From the NCBI RefSeq assembly GCF_003018235.1, contig NZ_CP027437.1: DNA of 64,000 nt. One strand, 5' to 3'. This document shows positions 16,066-40,321 of this stretch, piece by piece. Source of the DNA: Escherichia coli (GTDB lineage: Bacteria > Pseudomonadota > Gammaproteobacteria > Enterobacterales > Enterobacteriaceae). Made by a program: the position numbers and the translations under genes. The notes below the pieces were generated by a model that saw only the letters and a list, made by a program, of their open reading frames with translations, had not been told where the DNA came from and did not search any database. Within the stretch, counting starts at the first letter, position 1, and the number at the start of each line of letters is the position of its first letter.

Positions 16066-16416
<351 letters not shown>

Positions 16417-23163: not shown

Positions 23164-24168
23164 CTATATGGACAGATTATGGACGCTTTCAGCCAGTGGA
23201 TTAAAGCTTATAGCATCCTGTAAAAAATCCGGTGCAAAATGCGCATATGTCATTGTTTGCTGGATAGTTGAATGTCCAAGAATCCGTTGAAGTGTTACTA
23301 TATTTCCTCCATTCATCATAAAGTGTGTTGCAAACGTATGCCGCATAACATGAGTTGCCTGTCCTTTGGGCAGATCTGGTTTTACTTCCTTTAGTGCTCG
23401 TCGAAAGTTTGTGTAATTAACATTAAACAATGCACCAGATTGTTTTATCTTGATGAGCTTTATAACTTCTTCGGATATAGGTATGGCGCGGGGTTTATTG
23501 GTTTTTGTCTGATTAAACATAACTCTGTTTCCCACAATATTTTCTCCCCGTAGTTTTGTTGCCTCTCCCCACCTTGCTCCTGTCGAAAGACACAGAATCG
23601 CTATTCGTTTGTTATCTCCAGTAAGATGATTGAGCAAGCGATCAATCTCTTCGTTTGATAAAAACGACATATCTGATGGTACAATCCTCAACTTCCTCAG
23701 ACCATGTAGCGGATTTGCATGGTGGAATTCTTCAGCATTAATCAGCACTGAAAACATGGCTGAAAGTACGCAGAGATCCCTGTTTACCGTGTTGGGTGTC
23801 AGTCCTGCACTGAGTTTGTTTGCACGATAACTCAGAAGGAACTTTCTGGTTACACCGTTGGCTCTGGGATCTCCCATTTCTCTGATCACTTTATTCAGCC
23901 TTTGCAGGTATGTCTCACCATAAGGCTGATTTTGCCCGTCGAGCATCCACCACATTTCGGCAAGTTCGGAAAGATGGCGTTTGTCTGCGGGTTTTTCCAG
24001 CCATGGTTTGTTATGCATGTTCTGAAGAACATATTTTTCATAATCCTGCGCTTTCGACTTCAGGGTGAAAATTTTTCGAATCCGCTTCCCTTCCGCACCC
24101 TGAGGTCTGACATCAACCTGATAACGTCCGTCTTTGAGCTGCTTAATCGACATGATTAGCACCTCCAA
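23164..24168 (-). CDS. int: Tyrosine-recombinase integrase, P2-family-like
   Basis: C-terminal catalytic region ...ATHVMRHTFATHFMMNGGNIVTLQRILGHSTIQQTMTYAHFAP...; ILCLSTGARWGEA and TKTNKPR motifs as I recall in P2 Int; true start may be the Met at 24153. Confidence 0.9.
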   Translation of the reverse strand: MEVLIMSIKQLKDGRYQVDVRPQGAEGKRIRKIFTLKSKAQDYEKYVLQNMHNKPWLEKPADKRHLSELAEMWWMLDGQNQPYGETYLQRLNKVIREMGDPRANGVTRKFLLSYRANKLSAGLTPNTVNRDLCVLSAMFSVLINAEEFHHANPLHGLRKLRIVPSDMSFLSNEEIDRLLNHLTGDNKRIAILCLSTGARWGEATKLRGENIVGNRVMFNQTKTNKPRAIPISEEVIKLIKIKQSGALFNVNYTNFRRALKEVKPDLPKGQATHVMRHTFATHFMMNGGNIVTLQRILGHSTIQQTMTYAHFAPDFLQDAISFNPLAESVHNLSI

Positions 24169-24243: not shown

Positions 24244-24567
24244 TTATTGGTGTGATTTTGAGTTTGTTGTAGTTGAATCCTGAGCGGCCTCCGATTCTCC
24301 AGAGCCATCAAGAGAGAGAGCCGGGGCGATCTGCCCGGCCTGAGGGAAGGTTTTGCCGTGCAGGAGCCACATTGTGTATTTTTCGAACAGTGAGCACTGT
24401 AATACACGGAGGGCGATATCTGCCCGGGCAGGTTGATGTCCTGTTTCATAACTCTTAACAGAACCAAGAGCTATACCTGTTATCTCGCTAAACTTTTGCT
24501 GGGTTATTTTTTCAGCACGTCTGATCGCTCGTAGTTTTTGAGCAAAATCCATTGACAAGGTATTCAT
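24244..24567 (-). CDS. Immunity repressor, P2 C-like (HTH)
   Basis: HTH FSEITGIALGSVKSYETG; C-terminal KYTMWLLHGK..GQIAPAL resembles P2 C (KYTLWFMTN..GQIAPAL) from memory; same strand as int. Confidence 0.7.
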   Translation of the reverse strand: MNTLSMDFAQKLRAIRRAEKITQQKFSEITGIALGSVKSYETGHQPARADIALRVLQCSLFEKYTMWLLHGKTFPQAGQIAPALSLDGSGESEAAQDSTTTNSKSHQ

Positions 24568-24668: not shown

Positions 24669-25127
24669 ATGCAGGAAACTATTGCAGAGGGGGGGATATT
24701 CAACGCTGGTGGGGATGACACGCAGTTACAGGAAAAGGAAGTCAGAAATAAATTATCACTGAGACTTGATGGACCTGTAGCGGATTTAGTTTTTCTGGAT
24801 AAAGGAGCAGCATACGTTGGGCTGACCAGGAAAGCGCTTGCAACAGCTTTACGTAGAGGCGAAATGCCTGGACATAAGAAAAGAAAAAATCCTGAAGATG
24901 AAACATCGCGTGGAGTGTGGATTTTTAACGTCAAGGCATGGAATGAACTTGCTGATATTTTGCCTGAAATTGAGCCACCAGAATGGCATCACTGGAAAGA
25001 TTACTGGTTATACAACCGAAACACTCGGAAATTTCAAAAGATTGATAAACAAGATTGTACACAGATTAATGGTAAACGTGTTTACAGGCCGCGTCAGAGC
25101 AGACTGGAAAAAGCACGTCAGTCATGA
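24669..25127 (+). CDS. Hypothetical DNA-binding protein in cox/apl position (possible excisionase or lytic-switch regulator)
   Basis: GGAGG SD 9 nt upstream; segment LVFLDKGAAYVGLTRKALATALRRGEMP resembles excisionase/AlpA-type HTH; divergent from repressor. Confidence 0.35.
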   Translation: MQETIAEGGIFNAGGDDTQLQEKEVRNKLSLRLDGPVADLVFLDKGAAYVGLTRKALATALRRGEMPGHKKRKNPEDETSRGVWIFNVKAWNELADILPEIEPPEWHHWKDYWLYNRNTRKFQKIDKQDCTQINGKRVYRPRQSRLEKARQS

Positions 25128-25299
25128 AACGGTATTTATTAGTAAGCAACAAGAAAGTGAATTAAACTCATCGGCAATAACTCGTTATTAAATTGTCATA
25201 CTGTCTGAAACTATTTCCTTCTATTACTGATGTGTGAGGCACGGAAAGGGAATTCCGTTTTTTTAGTGGTGCGATGAGAAAATAACAGAGGTGTCAGAA

Positions 25300-25485: not shown

Positions 25486-26281
25486 ACACAGGAAAGTTAT
25501 GGGCTTGTGTGATTCAGAAAGTGTGAGGTTACGTGCAAAATGGCCAGACATGTAAAAAAGAACTTGAATGCAGTGTCGGCATGGTGGTATTTTTCATCTG
25601 CTGCCACAGTGCTGGCAGTCGGGAATACCACCCCGTATGTGTCAACGGCGACATCAGACGCCGCAAGCGTCTTTTTTGTTGTCGTAACCTTATACGCCAT
25701 GAAGCTCCATTTTATGGTGCGGTGTTATCCATTAAGAGCCGTTGCAAGCGCCTCTACCGGAAGGGGCTGGATAACATCCACCACCATGTCAATGGTAGCT
25801 CAGGCGGGGCCGACTTCGGTCGGGCCGGTTTCCGTTGGCACCGGTAGTGGTATCCCCGTCTGGGCTATCGCCAGTGAGCATACCACCTCCTGCGATAGCA
25901 GTATGTTATGTCAACGGAGGCTGCCTGAATGGCTACAATCCCAACCCAAAAGCGCCCAAAATCCGCGCTCCCCCAGCTCAGCAGTGACTGTCGTCGCCGG
26001 ATACACCGTGTGCAGATGGTTACGCTCCATTATTACATTCAGTGTCTCGCTGATAATCCGTGTTCAGTTGATTTTTGTTTTCCGTACTTATTGTCTTACA
26101 TCCACGATGATATTAAGGCTATAGATAATGAGTTAATTTCTCTTGGCCTGTTTGAACAGGCGATGGGAAAGAAAAAACGACGATAGTTTTCATCGTTATT
26201 AATTAACGTTGTCAGGAAGTATTAAACACACCGCTCACGCGGCGGGAATCTTACATCTTAAATATCTGACGAGGTGGAAAC

Positions 26282-32401: not shown

Positions 32402-32894
32402 CCACGGATAAAGAGAACTAAATTTCGTCAGAATTAACAGGAAATAACTGGAACGAAAAATACACCGCTTACGCGGCGGGGTTTCTGCAACCTTAAAACA
32501 GGGTAAGAGAAATGGCAGAGATGATGAACAATAAACTCTTCATAACCAGTCTCTTTAAGTTGACTGGCCGGGAGTAACGACCAGTGGCAATACAAAAAAA
32601 CCGCTTGCCAGCGTTTGTCTGGTCGGGTTACATTTCCCGTGCACCTCATAAAACGGGTGCCGGGATTCTCAACCCGCAGAAGAACAGAGCGCATAACCGC
32701 GCCAGCGGTTTTTTTATGCGTGCCGTATCGTCACACCTTTTTCGCACACGAATTATGGCGGGGCGTACGGGGCCGACTTCGGTCGGGCCGGATCCTCTGT
32801 TCTCCGGTGTTGAGAACCCCGTACGTCTCGCCACCCCGAGATTCTCAACTCTGGATGGTGAGTTATGTCTATCACTGAACAGAGGTTACCCCTT

Positions 32895-33125
32895 ATGGCA
32901 AACCGTAAACAACAGCGCGCCCGCACTGAGCGTCGTCACATCCAGACCGAAATCAACCGCAGACTGTACCGGGCTATCACTGTCGCCAGAGTCATGTACT
33001 TCAATATGCTGTGTGATCAGGGATGCCAGATTGCACCTGATTACATTGCCTCCACGTTCAGTTACCTGGCAGACGATCTGCGGGATATGCAACGCCTGGT
33101 TAACGATCAGGCGCATAACCTGTAA
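32895..33125 (+). CDS. Hypothetical small basic protein immediately upstream of repA
   Basis: MANRKQQRARTERRHIQTEINRRLY...; alternative start at 32865. Confidence 0.35.
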   Translation: MANRKQQRARTERRHIQTEINRRLYRAITVARVMYFNMLCDQGCQIAPDYIASTFSYLADDLRDMQRLVNDQAHNL

Positions 33126-33203: not shown

Positions 33204-35126
33204 ATGACCGTGTATTCAGCGGGAGGTCCGCGCATGCCTGAGCCGGAAGAAGAACAGGCATTCACTGAAGAGGTGAACAGCGCCTTTTCCGGGCTGCCTC
33301 GTTTTGTGTCTGTAAAGCTGGGGCGCAGGATCAGCAGCGCATGGCAGACAAAGGGTTTTGCCGGTGCACGGGAAAAATTTGCGCTGATGGTTCAGAAGGA
33401 TTTGCCGTTCATTACCGGGGTGAATAAACGTTATGCCATTAATCCGGATGAATTACCGGGGTGGCTGTTTGGTGGGCTGGCATCTGATCAGGCATACGGT
33501 GCGGTTCATTCCATGACCTGGCGATTTAATGCCATGGTGGATGGTGACGACGGGGATGCGCATTTACTGGCTCAGGATCTGTCCGTGTTTCTTATTGCTG
33601 AAATGCAGCACCTGAGTGTTCTTCTTGCGGATGAAGATGCGGATGCGGCGGCAGATGCCATTTATGCCATGGTTGCCGGGCTTGTTGAGCATTTCCGGAT
33701 GGAGCCACCGGACTGGAAGCGTTTTATTGGCAGAAAGCTGACACTGGAGCAACTGACTGTTGCCATCAGCCGGATGCTGAGTGTTCGCTGGTGGCAGGGA
33801 AAACTCAGGGCATTCTCCCGTCGCTGGCGTGAACATCTGCTTATAGCTATGGGTGTCGTTCGTCGGCAGTCTTCACCGCACTGCAGTTATGAATGGGTGC
33901 AGAGGTGGCTGGCGGGGCGTAAGCACGGTCGAAGGCTGATGGCGGAAACGGACGTTGAGGATGAAGAAACAGGAGAAAGATTTTCACTTCTCGATTTGGT
34001 TGACAGCAGCATTTCAGATGCGGAGAAACGCCGCGCAGAGCTGATGACCAGGGTTAAGGGGCTGGAAGATTTAGCCCGTTTTGAAGGTGTGGCGCAGGAG
34101 CAGGGGTATATCGGGCTTTTTTTCACGATGACCGCGCCATCAAAATATCATGCCTGGCTGGAGACAGGATATCGCAATCGTCGTTATAACGGCGCAAGCC
34201 CGAAAGACACACAAAATTATTTCTCCGGACTCTGGCGTCAGATCAGTGCAACGCTGAGGCGCAGGGGGATCGGGATTTTTGGATTAAGAAGTGCCGAACC
34301 GCATCATGACGGAACGCCGCACTGGCATGGTGTTCTCTATGTGCATCAGGAGCATGCTGCCGCCTTACAGGACATTCTTGAGTATTACGCCAACCGCGAT
34401 GATGACGCGGGAAAAACGCCCATCCGCAAAGCAGGAAGAAAATCCCACCTGGAAATAAAACCGGTTCTTGATGATCTGGGGAGTGCCTCTGCCTATATCG
34501 CCAAGCATATTGGAATGAATCTTGACGGTTGTGCGCCAGGCGGAATGAATCATGAAACGGGCCATACACTGGTGGTCACTGCCCGCCACGCCTCGGCGTG
34601 GGCGTCATTATGGGGGATCAAGCAGTTTCAGTTTATAGGCAGCACACCGGTAAGTGTATGGCGTGAGCTGCGTCGCTTTAACAATCAGGCTCATGCTGAC
34701 CGGATAAGCCCGGCGCTGGGTGAGTTACACCGTGCAGCCAGTGAGGGTGACTGGAAAACCTATACCAGGCTGCAGGGTGGACCGTTTGTGGCACGAAGAG
34801 ATCTGGTCCTTCGCACATGGTATCAGCGTTCGGAGGAGCCGGATGAGTGTGGGCTACACACCAGTGCGATCAAAGGTGTTTATATGCCGGGGCGTGATAC
34901 GCCACCGGTAGTGACGCGTTCACGTAACTGGAGGATCACCCGGAACGTTACAACAGGCGCTCTCAATGTTAACCGGGGGTCTGCTTTAACGCCCTGGACT
35001 TGTGTCAATAACTGCATTTCGGGCAGAAAACGACCAGATGGTCATCCTCCGGATCCAGGTATAAGGATCCCTGTTCAACTGGAACTGAACTTCGGGGAAG
35101 AGAATAAAGGGAAAAGTGAGCAGTAA
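33204..35126 (+). CDS. Rolling-circle replication initiation endonuclease (HUH family; P2 gpA-like)
   Basis: GGGAGGA SD; HUH-type motif GTPHWHGVLYV; 640 aa in the position of gene A relative to int-C-cox. Confidence 0.75.
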   Translation: MTVYSAGGPRMPEPEEEQAFTEEVNSAFSGLPRFVSVKLGRRISSAWQTKGFAGAREKFALMVQKDLPFITGVNKRYAINPDELPGWLFGGLASDQAYGAVHSMTWRFNAMVDGDDGDAHLLAQDLSVFLIAEMQHLSVLLADEDADAAADAIYAMVAGLVEHFRMEPPDWKRFIGRKLTLEQLTVAISRMLSVRWWQGKLRAFSRRWREHLLIAMGVVRRQSSPHCSYEWVQRWLAGRKHGRRLMAETDVEDEETGERFSLLDLVDSSISDAEKRRAELMTRVKGLEDLARFEGVAQEQGYIGLFFTMTAPSKYHAWLETGYRNRRYNGASPKDTQNYFSGLWRQISATLRRRGIGIFGLRSAEPHHDGTPHWHGVLYVHQEHAAALQDILEYYANRDDDAGKTPIRKAGRKSHLEIKPVLDDLGSASAYIAKHIGMNLDGCAPGGMNHETGHTLVVTARHASAWASLWGIKQFQFIGSTPVSVWRELRRFNNQAHADRISPALGELHRAASEGDWKTYTRLQGGPFVARRDLVLRTWYQRSEEPDECGLHTSAIKGVYMPGRDTPPVVTRSRNWRITRNVTTGALNVNRGSALTPWTCVNNCISGRKRPDGHPPDPGIRIPVQLELNFGEENKGKSEQ

Positions 35127-35253
35127 ATTTTCCGGTTAAGTCAGCGGAAGAAACTGGACTTGTCCGGAGAATAAAAATACCGGTTTTACCTGGGCATGGT
35201 TTTATATACAGTGTCGCTGTATGGCGACAGTTAAGTGAAAAATGAGGTGGAAC

Positions 35254-35533: not shown

Positions 35534-36613
35534 ATGCAGGCGATCCTGACGGTATTCCCGCAGCGTAATGCCGGGATAACACTGATGAAAACAGGTAATC
35601 TGACAGCGCGGTTCAGGGACGGGCAGAGAATAATGATAAGGGATGTTCCGTCTGTGATGGCTGGGATGCCATCAGGAGAAATTCCGTCATCAGGACAGAG
35701 GCTGGCGGAAGAGGAAGGACTGACGGCTTTCTTTGCTGACGGAAGGGTAATAAAGCGTGCTGGTGGCAGTGATGCCATGGCGCGTTGGGTGAGCAGGATT
35801 GCAGGCTGCCAGTGTGAGAATGGTGATCACGTGGAGAACATGACAACAGCGCGGACAATGCAGGGAGAGGCGCTTCGGTTATGCCATGCCTGTGATAATC
35901 ATCATTATATGAAAGGATATCGGGCGCTGGCAGATGTGGCAGCCAGAAATCGTGCAGAATGGCTGATGGATTATATCAGGATGAGTCTGGGGCTGGGGGA
36001 AGATCATCAGGTGACCATTCCTGAGTTGTTTTGCTGGGCAGTGCTGAATGATGTGGCAGATGCTGTTCCGGTTATGATCGTAAGGCGTATCAGACAATTG
36101 CCGGAAGAGGAAAAGCTGAGCGGCACGATGAAAGAAGCAGATATTAATCCCTGGCAGACATCAGCAGGCACAGTGGTGAAGAAACTGGCAGATAATGCGA
36201 AGAGCGTTAATGTGTGCAATGTGCGGGTCAGACATGCAGTACGCCAGGAAGAACACAAAGAAATGGAAAAACCGGTGCTGAAACTTGTTGCAGACAGTGA
36301 TCCGGCTGCGGGCTATATGAGGAAGCCCAGAATGCAGCGGCTGTCTCTGCCGGGTTATACCTCGTGGGTGAAGCGTCAGCGATGCTGTGGATGCGGGAAA
36401 CCTGCAGATGATCCGCATCACATCACCGGGCACGGTTTTGGTGGTGCAGGGATAAAAGCCAGTGATTTGTTTGTGATCCCGCTGTGTCGGCAATGTCATC
36501 AGGAATTACACAATGACAGCAAGGCATGGGAGGAGAAAAACGGCAGTCAGTTGCTGTGGGTGATAAGGACGCTGGACAGGGCAGCGGGCATTGGCGCTTT
36601 AGTTGGGGGGTAA
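35534..36613 (+). CDS. Hypothetical protein with C-terminal HNH-like Cys/His nuclease motif
   Basis: CCGCGKPADDPHHITGHGFGGAGIKASDLFVIPLCRQCHQELHND; translationally coupled to upstream gene. Confidence 0.55.
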   Translation: MQAILTVFPQRNAGITLMKTGNLTARFRDGQRIMIRDVPSVMAGMPSGEIPSSGQRLAEEEGLTAFFADGRVIKRAGGSDAMARWVSRIAGCQCENGDHVENMTTARTMQGEALRLCHACDNHHYMKGYRALADVAARNRAEWLMDYIRMSLGLGEDHQVTIPELFCWAVLNDVADAVPVMIVRRIRQLPEEEKLSGTMKEADINPWQTSAGTVVKKLADNAKSVNVCNVRVRHAVRQEEHKEMEKPVLKLVADSDPAAGYMRKPRMQRLSLPGYTSWVKRQRCCGCGKPADDPHHITGHGFGGAGIKASDLFVIPLCRQCHQELHNDSKAWEEKNGSQLLWVIRTLDRAAGIGALVGG

Positions 36614-36614
36614 C

Positions 36615-37319
36615 ATGACACCGCAACAGATGGTATGGGCGAGAGAGCAGGTTATTTTTGCACTGAATCCACCGGATAAACGTCAGAAGGGGCAACTGGA
36701 GGCATTTGGTGATTTTGCCAGGTCAGACACCAGGCGTTACGGGAGGCAGAGAAACAGGACACTGAACATTGATGGCCGGTGGTATTGTCAGGATGGTGAT
36801 CCGGTACATGCTGCGGCAACAGCCTGTTATGCAATACAACCGGATATGATCACCAGGGAAGCGTTCAGAACGGCACAACTGAGGAGGAGGATTTATTGTC
36901 TGGAGGATTATCATCGGGCCTGGGTGTTATTCAGTTACAGCTTGCAGAAAAAACGAATACACCATCTTCTGGTCAGTGAGTACATCTGGATGAGGATGTT
37001 CGAGCGGTTGCAGGGGAAACGGGTTACGGACAGGATGACAGGAAATCTGATTGAAATAGCGAGGATGGCTGCATGGAATGCTGCAGTGACAGCCGGTGGG
37101 ATTGTTGCAGGTAAGGTTCTGATTGCTCCTTCATGTGCGGCGCAGATTGCAGGTGTAAAACCAAACACATGGAGTCAGCATTACAAGGCTCACTGGTGTT
37201 TTATGCATGAAGTATGCGATGAACTGGATCATGAGGCGCTGGTGACCATTACAGGAATAAAAAATCACCAAAAAAACGGCGAAAAATATAAATTTGCTAA
37301 AGTGAATATTTTAAGGTAG
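36615..37319 (+). CDS. Hypothetical protein (234 aa); a late-gene antiterminator role is possible by position only
   Basis: Last long ORF before a terminator and the late region; no motif recognised with confidence. Confidence 0.4.
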   Translation: MTPQQMVWAREQVIFALNPPDKRQKGQLEAFGDFARSDTRRYGRQRNRTLNIDGRWYCQDGDPVHAAATACYAIQPDMITREAFRTAQLRRRIYCLEDYHRAWVLFSYSLQKKRIHHLLVSEYIWMRMFERLQGKRVTDRMTGNLIEIARMAAWNAAVTAGGIVAGKVLIAPSCAAQIAGVKPNTWSQHYKAHWCFMHEVCDELDHEALVTITGIKNHQKNGEKYKFAKVNILR

Positions 37320-37365
37320 ATTTGAGGCAAATTTGATAGTCTGCCGTATTTGTAAGCAGAGCATA

Positions 37366-37389
37366 AACCCGCATATTGCGGGTTTTTTT
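37366..37389 (+). terminator. Rho-independent terminator
   Basis: ACCCGC-atatt-GCGGGT hairpin followed by TTTTTTT. Confidence 0.55.
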
Positions 37390-37513
37390 ATGCCCGAAAT
37401 TTTCCCTCAGCGCAATAAATACGCTGGTGGTTGTGAGTACCGGTCTTTCAGCTTGCTGGCTTTTTCGACAAGAGTTATTGGTATGCCACGTTAACCGGAC
37501 AGGGGGAAAAGAC

Positions 37514-37711
37514 ATGCTGAAACAGCAGGATATGACAGAAACCGCCAGGGTGGTGTTTAATGAATTAAGCATTACCGAACCGGCGACCGTCGGGGAAATA
37601 GCGCAGAATACCTGCCTTTCACGTGAACGCTGCCAGTTAATACTGACTCAGCTTGTTATGGCGGGTCTGGCTGACTATCAGTTCGGTTGTTACAGACGCC
37701 TTCAGCAATGA
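37514..37711 (+). CDS. Small winged-helix-like protein (paralog 4)
   Basis: TARVVFNELSITEPATVGEIAQNTCLSRERCQLILTQLVMAGL; GGGGG SD; precedes the methyltransferase. Confidence 0.5.
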   Translation: MLKQQDMTETARVVFNELSITEPATVGEIAQNTCLSRERCQLILTQLVMAGLADYQFGCYRRLQQ

Positions 37712-37862
37712 AGGCATTCTTTTATTGTGAAGATGGGCGACTGGTTAGGTGTTACAGCACCCAACCAGTCATTCGCTCATGCTTGAAGGTCACAAGCGAA
37801 CCCAGGCCCACCGCTTTTGCACAAAAGCCCGGAGAGCCTACCGGAGATGAGTTTGTTGATCT

Positions 37863-38930
37863 ATGACGCATGTTGTAAAAATATCAGAAAGTGAACTGGT
37901 CAATGCTGACTGCCTGGAATTTATACACACGTTGCCAGATGACAGTATTGACCTGATCGTTACCGATCCACCGTACTTTAAAGTGAAACCCAATGGCTGG
38001 GATAACCAGTGGAAGGGTGATGAAGATTACCTGAAGTGGCTGGATCAGTGTCTTGCGCAGTTCTGGCGGGTGCTGAAACCTGCCGGAAGTCTTTACCTGT
38101 TCTGTGGCCATCGCCTGGCATCTGACATCGAAATCATGATGCGTGAACGCTTTAATGTGCTGAACCATATTATCTGGGCGAAGCCGTCCGGACGCTGGAA
38201 CGGATGCAACAAGGAAAGCCTGAGGGCGTATTTCCCGGCCACAGAGCGCATTCTGTTCGCGGAACACTATCTGGAGCCGTATCGCCCGAAAGATGATGGT
38301 TATGAGGCGAAGGGCAGGGCACTGAAACAGCATGTGATGGCACCGCTGATTTCTTACTTTCGTGATGCGCGTGCCGCCCTTGGGATAACGGCAAAACAGA
38401 TTGCTGATGTCACAGGAAAGAAAAACATGGTGTCGCACTGGTTCAGTGCCAGTCAGTGGCAGCTGCCGAACGAAAGCGATTATCTGAAATTACAGGCGCT
38501 GTTTGCCCGGGTGGCAGAAGAGAAGCATCAGCGCGGAGAACTGGAAAAGCCACACCACCAGCTGGTGGTAACGTATACCTCACTGAACCGGCAGTATGCG
38601 GAGTTGCTGAGTGAATACAAAAATCTGCGCCGGTATTTTGGCGTGACGGCGCGGGTCCCGTACACCGATGTGTGGACGCACAAGCCGGTCCAGTTTTACC
38701 CGGGTAAACACCCCTGTGAAAAACCGGCGGAGATGCTGCGGCAGATAATTTGTGCGAGCAGCCGTCCTGGTGACATGGTGGCGGATTTCTTTATGGGGTC
38801 GGGCTCAACCATAAAAGCCGCTATGGCGCTGGGGCGTCGTGCAATTGGTGTTGAACTGGAAGAGGAACGTTTTGCGCAGACCGTGAAAGAGATTAGTCAT
38901 ATCCTGACAGGCTCAATTGATGACGGATAA
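37863..38930 (+). CDS. DNA methyltransferase, beta-class N6-adenine/N4-cytosine
   Basis: Motif IV DPPY (IVTDPPYF) precedes motif I FMGSGST; 355 aa. Confidence 0.85.
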   Translation: MTHVVKISESELVNADCLEFIHTLPDDSIDLIVTDPPYFKVKPNGWDNQWKGDEDYLKWLDQCLAQFWRVLKPAGSLYLFCGHRLASDIEIMMRERFNVLNHIIWAKPSGRWNGCNKESLRAYFPATERILFAEHYLEPYRPKDDGYEAKGRALKQHVMAPLISYFRDARAALGITAKQIADVTGKKNMVSHWFSASQWQLPNESDYLKLQALFARVAEEKHQRGELEKPHHQLVVTYTSLNRQYAELLSEYKNLRRYFGVTARVPYTDVWTHKPVQFYPGKHPCEKPAEMLRQIICASSRPGDMVADFFMGSGSTIKAAMALGRRAIGVELEEERFAQTVKEISHILTGSIDDG

Positions 38931-39381
38931 GGATGGATAAAGACATGGTCAGTTCAGGATGCGAAGCAAGTAAACAGATAAGGCTATAAAAAAAACTGAC
39001 AGTAGAAAAATAGCTTTTTCCCAGGTATTCATGAACACAATCTCTTAAAAGCGCCCGCTGATACCAGCGGGCAATACATACTGGCATTGATGTTAAGTTT
39101 ACAGGTTTCATTTATCGTATCGTGCGACACGACGTTGTTATGTTAATAAGTGTGATTTTTGATGTGAAATGTTTGTTGCGTGTTTTTTGATGGGTTTCTC
39201 ATTTTTCAGGCATCATCTCGTCACTGATGTGCAGCACAGCGATGAGGTGCTACTACTTCCACGGAGCGGATTTTGTCTTTTTTGTGGGTGGTAAAAATCT
39301 CCTTATAGCAGGATGTGATAATTATTTATCAGTATAATCTTATGAGATTGACGCGATTTCTCCGGATTTGTTAGAAGATCA

Positions 39382-39456
39382 TGCATGGTGAATCCACCTC
39401 AGCGGTGGGTCATAATGACCGCCTGTTCGCCGGTTCAATCCCTGCGGGGGCCACCA
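39382..39456 (+). pseudogene. tRNA-Ile(CAU)-like remnant: intact-looking anticodon loop/T-arm/acceptor-CCA 3' half joined to a non-tRNA 5' half
   Basis: 3' part ...GTCATAATGACCGCCTGTTCGCCGGTTCAATCCCTGCGGGGGCCACCA resembles an ileX-type tRNA; no complementary 5' acceptor strand, so no cloverleaf. Confidence 0.3.
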
Positions 39457-39457
39457 T

Positions 39458-39534
39458 GCGCCGTTAGCTCAGCTGGACAGAGCAATTGCCTTCTAAGCAA
39501 TCGGTCACTGGTTCGAATCCAGTATGGCGCACCA
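39458..39534 (+). tRNA. tRNA-Arg (anticodon UCU)
   Basis: Manual cloverleaf: acceptor GCGCCGT/ATGGCGC, D-arm GCTC..GAGC, anticodon loop CTTCTAA, T-arm ACTGG-TTCGAAT-CCAGT, CCA end. Confidence 0.85.
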
Positions 39535-39535
39535 T

Positions 39536-39610
39536 GCGGTCATCGTATAATGGCTATTACCTCGGCCTTCCAGGCTGATGATGCGGGTTCGATTCCAGCT
39601 GGCCGCTCCA
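39536..39610 (+). tRNA. tRNA-Gly (anticodon UCC)
   Basis: Manual cloverleaf: acceptor GCGGTCA/TGGCCGC, anticodon loop CTTCCAG, T-loop TTCGATT, CCA end; close to glyT tRNA as I recall it. Confidence 0.8.
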
Positions 39611-39630
39611 TAGAGGATTATGGGGACTGT

Positions 39631-39768
39631 ATGTTGAGTATTTTTCTGCGTTACCTTTCATCGGTAAAAATAAACACACAACAACTATTTATGCTGGCAT
39701 TAGCAATGATAGTTATTGGTTTTCTCGGAACTTGTTTATTTATTTACTATATTTTTGTCGATAATTAA
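39631..39768 (+). CDS. Hypothetical small hydrophobic peptide (45 aa) in moron position
   Basis: MLSIFLRYLSSVKINTQQLFMLALAMIVIGFLGTCLFIYYIFVDN; weak SD; lies between tRNAs and the esterase gene. Confidence 0.25.
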   Translation: MLSIFLRYLSSVKINTQQLFMLALAMIVIGFLGTCLFIYYIFVDN

Positions 39769-40321
39769 TATTTTTAGTATTTAGCCAGAGTGGCCCAAAC
39801 AGAAAATAAAGTTACTGTGAAACAGGGGGGCCTAATAAAAATAATCACCACTAAATTCGGGGCTTTAAAAATGCTAAGAACATCACATTTCATTATGCCG
39901 GGTACTGGAGAATAACATGATGTTTTGTTAAAAATGATTTTGCATGGTGAATCCCCCTGTGCGGCGGGGCATAATGACAGATGTTTGGTTGCGTATTGTA
40001 TAGGCAAGTTGCGGATTCTGTCTGGTCATTGCAGAATTCACCGGGAGGCACCCGGCACCATGCAGATAATTGTTTTGTGGATGATAATACCAGCCCCTCT
40101 CCGGAGGGGCTTTCTTATGGGCGAAAAAAAGCCCGGGGAGCCGGGCAATAGCATGAGATATACGTTTTTATAGACGTACAGATTTTAATCAGAATTTATG
40201 GGGCTGCGCAACTGCGTGGCCTTTTTTGTTTTGTGGGCTAAGGTTTTCCCCTTTGATTCGCCATGTGGCTGAACCTGTAGCCCGCCACTGTTCAGACGCA
40301 ATCCCGGCAAGGGGAGGAATA

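Follow-up and report, generated by a model that had tools for sequence, protein, structure and literature searches.

A Q82-family antiterminator gene and a predicted phage 82-type late promoter in a prophage with P2-like early genes

A 64,000-nucleotide stretch of Escherichia coli DNA (RefSeq assembly GCF_003018235.1, contig NZ_CP027437.1; hereafter the window) carries a prophage in which lambda-like late genes stand downstream of control genes resembling those of P2. Such an arrangement raises the question of how late transcription is activated. The original prediction left this question open: it found no recognisable lambda-type antiterminator and offered a 234-aa ORF at 36615-37319 as the only candidate, on grounds of position. 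Here we ask what this ORF encodes, what lies 3′ of it, and which of the known modes of late gene control these features fit.

The Q gene and the genes around it

Lambdoid Q proteins belong to three unrelated families: Q-lambda (PF03589), Q21 (PF06530) and Q82 (PF06323) (PMC9388147). The search against antiterminator families that had been suggested for the 234-aa ORF settled the matter with a single profile, PF06323, which it matches at E=1.5e-27 over model positions 4-215 of 220. No second Pfam family appeared at E≤10. The Q21 profile was not matched and neither was that of Q-lambda, in keeping with the earlier statement that lambda’s own Q is absent. The ORF also matches PHROG 304 (“anti-termination protein Q-like”; 7.8e-42), a 99% identical orthologue is named “bacteriophage antitermination protein Q” in RefSeq, and the best phage match is the Q protein of phage 82 (28.8% identity over 99% of the query, E=7e-24). 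All residues at the 18 columns that are invariant in a 17-sequence alignment of the family are present in the window protein, and its C-terminal tail, KFAKVNILR, is collinear with the tails of more distant homologues and of phage 82 Q. Thus, a lambda-type antiterminator is recognisable after all, at the position where one had been suspected, and by its sequence the ORF is a divergent member of the Q82 family.

Of the three Q families, only Q82 lacks a solved structure that can be matched by sequence: a search of all PDB chains with the window Q returned nothing at E≤1. The predicted fold is nearest to Q-lambda and AlpA, with Foldseek E-values that are not significant (0.18 and 0.34) and a model of medium confidence (pLDDT 77.9). 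Among NCBIfam HMMs, none recognised Q, gpA, DUF968 or any further protein tested, except for partial matches of the methyltransferase to methyltransferase models, all under the curated cut-offs.

The Q gene begins 1 nt past the stop codon (TAA, 36611-36613) of the DUF968 gene, is preceded by a GGGGG ribosome-binding site, and is the final gene of a rightward early array in which every called gene from Cox to Q lies on the + strand (Table 1). As originally predicted, the control genes are P2-like. Profiles and RefSeq names in relatives identify an integrase, a divergent HTH regulator, Cox (PF10743, 1.9e-6) and gpA, the last being 36.8% identical to protein A of phage 186. gpA heads a conserved block (gpA, a small ORF, DUF968, Q) that has the same order in every locus encoding a homologue of the window Q. 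The reported lack of N, cI, cro, O and P holds as well: neither PHROG scans of the early ORFs nor RefSeq annotation of relatives revealed any of them, or any of the strictly lambdoid traits of cI/cro immunity, N antitermination and O/P replication. Intrinsic terminators on the + strand lie between Cox and Q at 25241, 25656 and 32695, and no N-like factor that would carry polymerase past them was found. The IsrK/C4 module is located 4 kb upstream of Q, where it precedes a “derepression protein” gene and gpA. A conserved TATATACAGT element near 35200 is one candidate for the promoter that supplies Q, alongside the early promoter on the Cox side and an IsrK promoter near 32605-32634.

Downstream of Q, every called gene from 37514 to the window end, including the lysis, head and tail genes, is on the + strand. 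The description of the lysis and morphogenesis genes as lambda-like is borne out by a prophage 97-99% identical to this one, in which RefSeq annotates a class II holin, lysozyme, Rz1, terminase, portal, tail genes, J and Lom, and by PHROG matches to an endolysin and a small terminase in the window. The structural genes named in relatives (U, G, T, tape measure, L, J and Lom) are lambdoid, and P2-type contractile-tail structural genes under Ogr control were not found. The methyltransferase gene has 87% DNA identity to its counterpart in Stx2-converting phages, and the tRNA pair sits where Stx phages have tRNAs ahead of stx. The originally proposed ORF at 39385-39768 overlaps both tRNA genes and is almost certainly not a gene.

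Table 1. Features of the early region, the Q locus and the start of the late region (positions in the window)
Feature	Position	Strand	Basis or details
IsrK RNA and C4-like RNA, ahead of a small antirepressor-type gene	32641-32838		
P2-type replication initiator gpA (rolling-circle nickase)	33204-35126	+	Pfam PF05840, 8e-77; PHROG 91 “nicking at origin of replication”, 1.8e-173
DUF968/HNH-type (ydfU-like) gene, directly upstream of Q	35534-36613	+	PHROG 96, 2.2e-115; RefSeq “DUF968 domain-containing protein” in relatives
Q antiterminator gene, Q82 family, 234 aa	36615-37319	+	Intact, ATG 36615 to stop 37319
Predicted late promoter pR′	37294-37322	+	-35 TTGCTA 37294-37299; 17-bp spacer; -10 TAGATT 37317-37322
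Predicted Q-utilisation (qut) region	37329-37355	+	Predicted +1 about A37329; conserved block AAATTTGATAGTCTGCC after promoter
Predicted extended -10-like sigma-dependent pause element TGaTAGTCT (TGATAGTCT)	37334-37342	+	Form TGnTAnnnT, inside AAATTTGATAGTCTGCC
Intrinsic terminator tR′	37365-37389	+	Terminator scan; stem CCCGC/GCGGG, A-U pair extension, then seven T
Small protein, first late-operon gene	37514-37711	+	PHROG 331, 1.4e-36; RefSeq “TrmB family transcriptional regulator”
DNA N6/N4 methyltransferase, late-operon passenger	37863-38930	+	PHROG 67, 2.9e-101
tRNA-Arg(TCT) and tRNA-Gly(TCC)	39458-39610	+	ARAGORN; Rfam tRNA
STnc100-like RNA element	39912-40223	+	Rfam RF02076, 145.6 bits
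Two further intrinsic terminators before the DUF6645 gene (40322)	40092-40111 and 40200-40223	+	Terminator scan

The late promoter region 3′ of Q

A predicted late promoter, pR′, was found by comparing loci. It had escaped a generic sigma-70 scan because its hexamers match only 8 of the 12 consensus positions. The promoter overlaps the 3′ end of Q: its -10 hexamer contains the Q stop codon, and its -35 hexamer falls within the F-A-K codons. When +1 is set 7 nt past the -10, the -10-like hexamer of the pause element (TAGTCT, a weak match at T1, A2 and T6 only) begins at +9 and a pause is predicted near +25 (37353), a position spanned by TTGTAA at 37350-37355. In phage 82, the polymerase pauses at +25, and the initially transcribed region contains both a Q-binding element and a -10-like pause element (PMC4914094); the pause predicted here falls at that published position. 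The leader folds at -20.7 kcal/mol (z = -3.6), and termination at tR′, a strong terminator, would give a leader RNA of ~60 nt. These are predictions throughout, for the start site and the pause as much as for the terminated leader. In its exact form, the motif is found a single time in the prophage. Its phage 82 form (CTGATATTTTGCC) has a 13-nt copy within cox (24952-24964); this copy lacks a promoter context and chance alone should produce so degenerate a pattern ~3.5 times, and we therefore treat it as a chance occurrence.

For the comparison of loci, an IMG/VR scan with the Q protein gave one relative only, and protein clusters with their contigs were used instead. The comparison covers 16 loci of the Q82 family, which come from at least seven genera and encode Q proteins sharing 24-81% identity with the window Q. 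MAFFT added spurious gaps and mis-anchored one locus, and an ungapped, motif-anchored alignment was used in its place. All 16 loci align gap-free over ~72 nt, with the consensus TTGCaA-N17-tAtATT-N6-AaTTTGATAt.tTGCCA.a.tTGTAa. T-TGATA---TGCC and TGTA, which stand at a fixed distance from the -10, carry close to the maximal 2 bits of information, and the positions under constraint comprise (i) TTGCAA, (ii) the TGnTAnnnT pause element, (iii) TGCC and (iv) TTGTA. A hairpin and T-run equivalent to tR′ follows the motif in most of the aligned loci. The alignment includes a phage that carries a ~97% identical version of phage 82 Q and has the same promoter and motif arrangement. Enterobacter phage CobraSix (L015) fell out of the motif regex; it has the same promoter and AAATCTGATA, after which it diverges. 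Across the loci, the Q stop codon is found anywhere from 18 to 77 nt upstream of TTTGATA, while the spacing of the -35, the -10, the block and the terminator is invariant. Because the stop codon moves relative to elements that keep their spacing, coding constraint cannot explain the conservation of the motif.

This invariant spacing also argues against the view that there is no dedicated late promoter, that the hairpin at 37365-37389 is an early-operon terminator, and that the late genes depend on leaky read-through or on internal promoters 5′ of 39382 or 40322. The weakness of the pR′ hexamers would fit such a view, as would a TATAAT hexamer at 39333-39338 and the location of tR′ after the last early gene, where an operon terminator is expected. 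However, the 39333 hexamer has neither a -35 nor an extended TG, the ORF at 39385-39768 is almost certainly no gene, and two more terminators stand ahead of 40322. We consider expression without a dedicated late promoter very unlikely.

Antitermination as the late switch

The late genes are very probably turned on by classical Q antitermination of the phage 82 type, as judged from the sequence features described above. Points that weigh against it are the low identity to phage 82 Q, the weak promoter hexamers and pause element, the failure of NCBIfam and PDB sequence searches to match Q, the non-significant Foldseek values, the possibility that the prophage is defective, and the three terminators between Cox and Q. 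RNA polymerase would start constitutively at pR′, and sigma-70 would then re-engage the extended -10-like TGaTAGTCT (+6 to +14), causing the polymerase to pause near +25. Without Q, transcription would terminate at tR′, which would stop unmodified early transcripts too. Once Q has accumulated, it would bind to DNA of the initially transcribed region, at the conserved element, and load onto the paused complex, and the Q-modified polymerase would pass tR′ as well as the terminators at 40092 and 40200. Read-through would thereby reach the small regulator gene, the methyltransferase, the tRNAs, DUF6645 and the lysis, head and tail genes.

The P2-like early chassis suggests another candidate, an Ogr/Delta zinc-finger activator that would act in place of Q at late promoters with a TGT-N12-ACA dyad near -55. 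The window has in common with P2 and 186 a P2-type int, Cox with an HTH repressor divergent from it, and gpA, and relatives hold an ogr remnant at the P2-typical position beside the attachment site. In the nearest relative (CFIAFB20140388), this is an ORF named “ogr/Delta-like zinc finger family protein”, which lies outside the window, at the right-hand prophage end. However, that ogr starts at a mosaic joint and is 5′-truncated, lacking the start codon and the first Cys-X2-Cys pair of the canonical MFRCPLC... protein, and in a second relative with the same gpA-DUF968-Q block ogr is absent altogether. Within the window, which ends short of the prophage right end, no Ogr/Delta-type protein with the four zinc-binding cysteines (Cys-X2-Cys ... 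Cys-X4-Cys) was found. A single dyad is present at 35212-35229, after gpA and ahead of the genes that lead to Q; it lacks a suitable rightward -10, and loci L006, L008, L009, L011 and L012 do not conserve it. In a regex scan of the window, none of the late genes had such a dyad with a properly spaced -10 upstream. Unlike the late genes of P2 and 186, which are under Ogr/B control, those of the window are lambdoid and are preceded by a Q antiterminator. Activation by Ogr/Delta is therefore extremely unlikely.

Antitermination by Q would thus make late gene control in this prophage ordinary despite its P2-like early genes, since a Q82-family Q is followed by a predicted promoter, pause site and terminator in the style of phage 82. 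Known Q homology and a canonical late promoter, which the original prediction had named as grounds for overturning it, are both found here at the level of sequence, given that Q belongs to the Q82 family and the late promoter is collinear with those of phage 82-type phages. Late activation is hence no longer the open matter it was said to be, and the puzzle as posed dissolves into a textbook Q mechanism.

Relation to known phages and distribution

The Q locus of phage 82 itself is the closest point of reference. There too PF06323 covers the full length of Q, Q is the last gene before the late operon, and the promoter -35 lies within the (I/F)-A-K codons of the Q C-terminus. Both loci have a 17-bp spacer, an equal distance from the -10 to the AAAT(T/C)TGATA...TGCC block, a -10-like element placed for a pause near +25, and an intrinsic terminator downstream. 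They differ in that (i) the Q proteins are only ~29% identical, (ii) phage 82 has TATATT as its -10 and TATTTT in its pause element, compared with TAGATT and TAGTCT here, (iii) the window terminator is much closer, which accounts for the short leader, and (iv) a nin/rusA region precedes Q in phage 82, with lambdoid early regulators, whereas gpA and DUF968 precede it here, with P2-like ones.

Two further systems share other parts of the locus. Stx2_95 (LC567838) has the same order of DUF968 (ydfU), Q, a small PHROG 331 gene, a DNA methylase, tRNAs and a nanS-p/DUF6645-type gene, and its DNA is ~87% identical to that of the window from the terminator T-run up to and including the methylase. However, its Q is a 126-aa protein of other length and sequence, its leader is unrelated, its replication gene is not gpA, and it carries stx2AB, which is absent here. 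In Gifsy-1 of Salmonella, AntQ is a Q82-family protein 25% identical to the window Q, and an IsrK and a C4-like RNA likewise precede a small antirepressor-type gene. There, isrK is directly 3′ of Q and the TTTGATA...TGCC block is absent, whereas in the window the RNA module is far upstream of Q.

The Q-plus-leader cassette is rare, occurring in 6 of 5,426 complete E. coli genomes. In contrast, DNA from ~37356 (the terminator) onward, which includes the 37514-37711 segment, is common (2,885 E. coli records), placing a mosaic joint with other lambdoid prophages at or just before tR′. Among 50,697 records, no phage genome shares the early region, the best gpA match being 37.5%. Literature searches found nothing relevant on a P2/lambdoid hybrid with gpA plus Q, and two papers on Stx-phage replication regions make no mention of P2, gpA, Cox or DUF968.

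The rarity of the cassette would be compatible with Q and its site being relics in a defective prophage whose late genes are no longer activated by anything. The prophage may indeed be defective: relatives carry pseudogenes (a RecE fragment, frameshifted genes and a truncated J), and in the nearest relative an A-run of 8 rather than 7 A (near window 37270-37276) shifts the Q frame and cuts the protein to 225 aa. Yet in the window the Q ORF is intact, with its collinear tail and every family-invariant residue, and promoter, motif block and terminator are each intact as well. It is thus highly unlikely that the switch is a relic.

That this Q subfamily always follows a P2-type gpA and DUF968, in a P2/lambdoid chimera without a sequenced phage counterpart, is a modest novelty. 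A broader reading is possible, though we hold it to be doubtful: a P2-type chassis (att, int, repressor, Cox, gpA) would have joined with a Q82-type subfamily, always linked to gpA and DUF968, that replaces Ogr-dependent late activation, forming a distinct temperate-phage lineage seen only as prophages, in which Q synthesis would be gated by IsrK/C4 RNA-controlled attenuators in the early array. If this were true, an antisense-RNA antirepressor circuit of the P1/Gifsy style would be coupled to a lambdoid late switch.

For the Q families as a whole, the 16-locus alignment provides a family-wide consensus for the Q82-type late promoter and loading site. The mechanism of the Q82 family has explicitly been called open (PMC9388147). 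A Q-lambda-like core, as predicted by the structural model, would bear on the structural kinship of the Q families. The strict gpA-DUF968-Q linkage in E. coli, Salmonella and metagenomic contigs marks a recurrent P2/lambdoid chimera and, because its late region is collinear with the late regions of Stx phages, this chimera could in principle acquire and express stx.

Identity of the candidate late regulator

The prophage in the window adjoins pheA and the Phe leader (Rfam; RefSeq context), and the host tmRNA gene ssrA (4756-5118, minus strand; tag ANDENYALAA), unrelated to the late regulator, lies ~18 kb to its left. The original prediction found no recognisable antiterminator here and proposed the ORF at 36615-37319, hereafter Q, as a positional candidate. 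The ORF is real (ATG 36615 to TAG 37319, 234 aa), and profile searches against antiterminator families identified a lambdoid Q: the sole Pfam family is PF06323, Phage_antiter_Q (E = 1.5e-27, model positions 4-215 of 220), and the PHROGs match is family 304, 'anti-termination protein Q-like' (7.8e-42). When 50,697 phage records were searched by tblastn, 47 matched, every one at a Q gene, and the top match was phage 82 Q (X92588; 28.8% identity over 99% of the query, E = 7e-24). In RefSeq, an orthologue with 99% identity bears the name 'bacteriophage antitermination protein Q'. An alignment of 17 sequences, with members 23-81% identical to the window Q, has 18 invariant columns. The AlphaFold2 model built on it (mean pLDDT 77.9) gave as its best two Foldseek matches the Q-lambda and AlpA loading complexes (E = 0.18 and 0.34, not significant), so that the predicted fold is corroboration and no proof. 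By sequence, Q is unmistakably a divergent Q82-family antiterminator. The three lambdoid Q families, Q21 (PF06530), Q-lambda (PF03589) and Q82 (PF06323), have no detectable mutual sequence similarity (PMC9388147). Thus, the original statement that lambda's own Q is absent stands, since the ORF matches PF06323 and not PF03589.

Near the 3' end of Q, an A-run (37270-37276) has 7 A in the window versus 8 A in the nearest relative, strain CFIAFB20140388 (L001 ~16270-16285), where the frame shifts and Q stops at 225 aa, ahead of the promoter. The 7-A version is collinear with distant homologues.

Features of the prophage, the late promoter region and the antisense-RNA modules
Feature	Position	Strand	Remarks
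Integrase	23164-24168	minus	
HTH regulator	24244-24567	minus	
Gene array, uninterrupted	from ~24690 onward	plus	
Second module: terminator	25656-25672		
Second module: C4 RNA	25788-25875		74 bits
Second module: small ORF	start near 25930		a relative is annotated 'ash family protein' at this site (RefSeq)
Promoter-like site TTGCCA-18-TACATT	within 32605-33125		
IsrK RNA with own terminator	32641-32715		
C4 RNA	32751-32838		
'Derepression protein' gene	32865-33125		86 aa
-35 TTGCTA	37294-37299		predicted, 16-locus alignment
-10 TAGATT, Q stop codon inside	37317-37322		predicted, 16-locus alignment
Conserved block AAATTTGATAGTCTGCC	37329-37345		16-locus alignment
TTGTAA	37350-37355		16-locus alignment

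A predicted late promoter overlapping the end of Q

A strong intrinsic terminator, tR', lies 46 bases past the Q stop, with a GC stem at 37368-37382 that A-U pairs extend to 37365-37385, followed by seven T. For the putative leader, the folding energy is -20.7 kcal/mol (z = -3.6). We gathered the loci of every detectable homologue of the window Q (42-100% identity) and extended the set to phages whose Q82-family genes are more distant, including Escherichia phage PhiR47_2, whose Q is ~97% identical to that of phage 82. With a single motif as anchor, 16 loci from Escherichia, Salmonella, Klebsiella, Hafnia, Morganella, Citrobacter, Aeromonas and metagenomic sources align gap-free across ~72 nt, with the consensus TTGCaA - N17 - tAtATT - N6 - AaTTTGATAt.tTGCCA.a.tTGTAa; a hairpin and T-run come next in most loci. 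Conservation persists although the Q stop lies anywhere from 18 to 77 nt upstream of the TTTGATA motif, and therefore protein coding cannot account for it at this predicted promoter and its motif.

TGnTAnnnT, conserved across the aligned loci, comprises exactly the extended -10 positions of greatest weight for sigma-70. In the geometry of lambda pR', +1 is the seventh base after the -10. Placed in this way, the start of the predicted window promoter, pR', puts the first base of a -10-like hexamer at +9 and hence a predicted sigma-dependent pause ~16 nt on, near +25. At phage 82 pR', the published pause maps to this position, and the Q-binding and pause elements are both located downstream of the transcription start (PMC4914094). 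In phage 82 and the window prophage alike, the -35 hexamer falls within the (I/F)-A-K codons of the Q C-terminus, which argues that the overlap of gene and predicted promoter is itself homologous. An exact copy of the loading-site motif as found in phage 82, CTGATATTTTGCC, occurs at 24952-24964 inside the cox coding region; lacking promoter context, it is probably there by chance.

P2-like early genes and transcription toward Q

The early genes include Cox (PF10743, 1.9e-6) and gpA (PF05840, 8e-77), the latter no more than 37.5% identical to the gpA of any sequenced phage in the genome collection; no genome in the collection searched shares the early region. The order gpA, small ORF, DUF968, Q is found in all 9 Q homologue clusters with readable contigs. 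A GGGGG precedes the Q start, which lies 1 base past the TAA of the DUF968 gene, and thus the two genes look co-transcribed and translationally coupled.

A P2-type Ogr driving the late genes is a weak alternative. The nearest relative has an 'ogr/Delta-like' ORF at its right prophage end, outside the window, but homology to canonical ogr begins within the gene, with the start codon and first Cys-X2-Cys lost. Moreover, a second relative keeps gpA-DUF968-Q with different head genes and no ogr, and none of the late genes in the window has a TGT-N12-ACA dyad and spaced -10 upstream of it. The ORF of the nearest relative (L024 12254-12465, minus strand; NZ_CP076709) is cut at a mosaic joint and adjoined by a hok/gef gene and a TM2-domain gene.

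Three plus-strand intrinsic terminators (25241, 25656 and 32695) lie between Cox and Q. The one at 32695 terminates an IsrK-like RNA (Rfam, 65.4 bits), which is followed by a C4 antisense RNA (77 bits), the small 'derepression protein' gene (PF25738, 7.8e-4) and gpA. This module (32605-33125) resembles P1 immI or Gifsy-1 and sits within a P2-like early gene array. GTTGAGAACCCC in C4 has two complementary partners, GGGATTCTCAACCC in IsrK and GAGATTCTCAAC immediately before the ribosome-binding site of the derepression gene. In Gifsy-1, an antirepressor and, indirectly, AntQ are controlled by IsrK and by transcription that partly passes the IsrK terminator (PMC4825925); by analogy only, we infer that a comparable circuit may gate Q. 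A second module of this kind lies at 25656-26187. Between gpA and the small ORF leading to DUF968 and Q, a conserved element, TTTTATATACAGTGTCG(C), precedes a hairpin, TGTCGC-N6-GCGACA, that also fits TGT-N12-ACA (35195-35232). Its TATATACAGT core occurs in 8 of 9 loci examined, with compensatory stem changes in one, and the element may be an internal promoter or the 5' stem-loop of the Q-carrying transcript.

Proposed late read-through and exchange of Q with its site

In the Q-dependent mechanism that we propose, RNA polymerase would initiate at pR' and pause near +25. Without Q it would halt at tR'; with Q it would become termination-resistant, pass tR' and the terminators at 40092-40111 and 40200-40223, and reach DUF6645, the lysis genes and the morphogenesis genes. 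Promoter mapping had been proposed upstream of 39382 and 40322, but neither position holds up. At the former, the 127-aa ORF taken as a reference point (39385-39768) overlaps tRNA-Arg and tRNA-Gly and is implausible as a gene; ahead of 40322 are two terminators, not a promoter.

Several small features occupy this interval. A short hydrophobic ORF (~39632-39768) follows the tRNAs, and a full STnc100 sRNA match (145.6 bits, 39912-40122) lies between them and DUF6645; a second, weak and partial match (25.8 bits, 39355-39586) overlaps tRNA-Arg. The box GCATGGTGAATCC...GCGG..GGG.CATAATGAC is present at 39383 and 39943. On the minus strand, Rfam matches at 40124-40179 fall short of the threshold for two anti-sRNAs of EHEC prophages, AsxR (44.5 bits, gathering score 63) and AgvB (28.4 bits), and a terminator lies on that strand at 40146-40131.

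When 36615-37520 was searched by blastn against 5,426 complete E. coli genomes, Q and its leader were found in only 6 genomes, whereas DNA from ~37356 onward (terminator and small PHROG-331 gene) matched 2,885 records. Stx2-converting phages are ~87% identical to the window from the terminator through the methyltransferase. In one of these phages, Stx2_95, the order is DUF968, Q, leader, terminator T-run onward, tRNAs, stx2AB and nanS-p; its 126-aa Q is unlike the window Q in length and sequence and its leader is unrelated, but the same sequence resumes at the terminator T-run. These distributions argue that the exchange unit is Q with its predicted promoter and putative loading site, joined at the terminator, as expected if the protein and its site must match. 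The lambda-like late operon noted originally would largely be explained by an antiterminator of the Q82 family, together with a late promoter, pause site and terminator of the phage-82 type. The chimeric chassis and the gpA-linked Q subfamily add modestly to the phage mosaicism already known.
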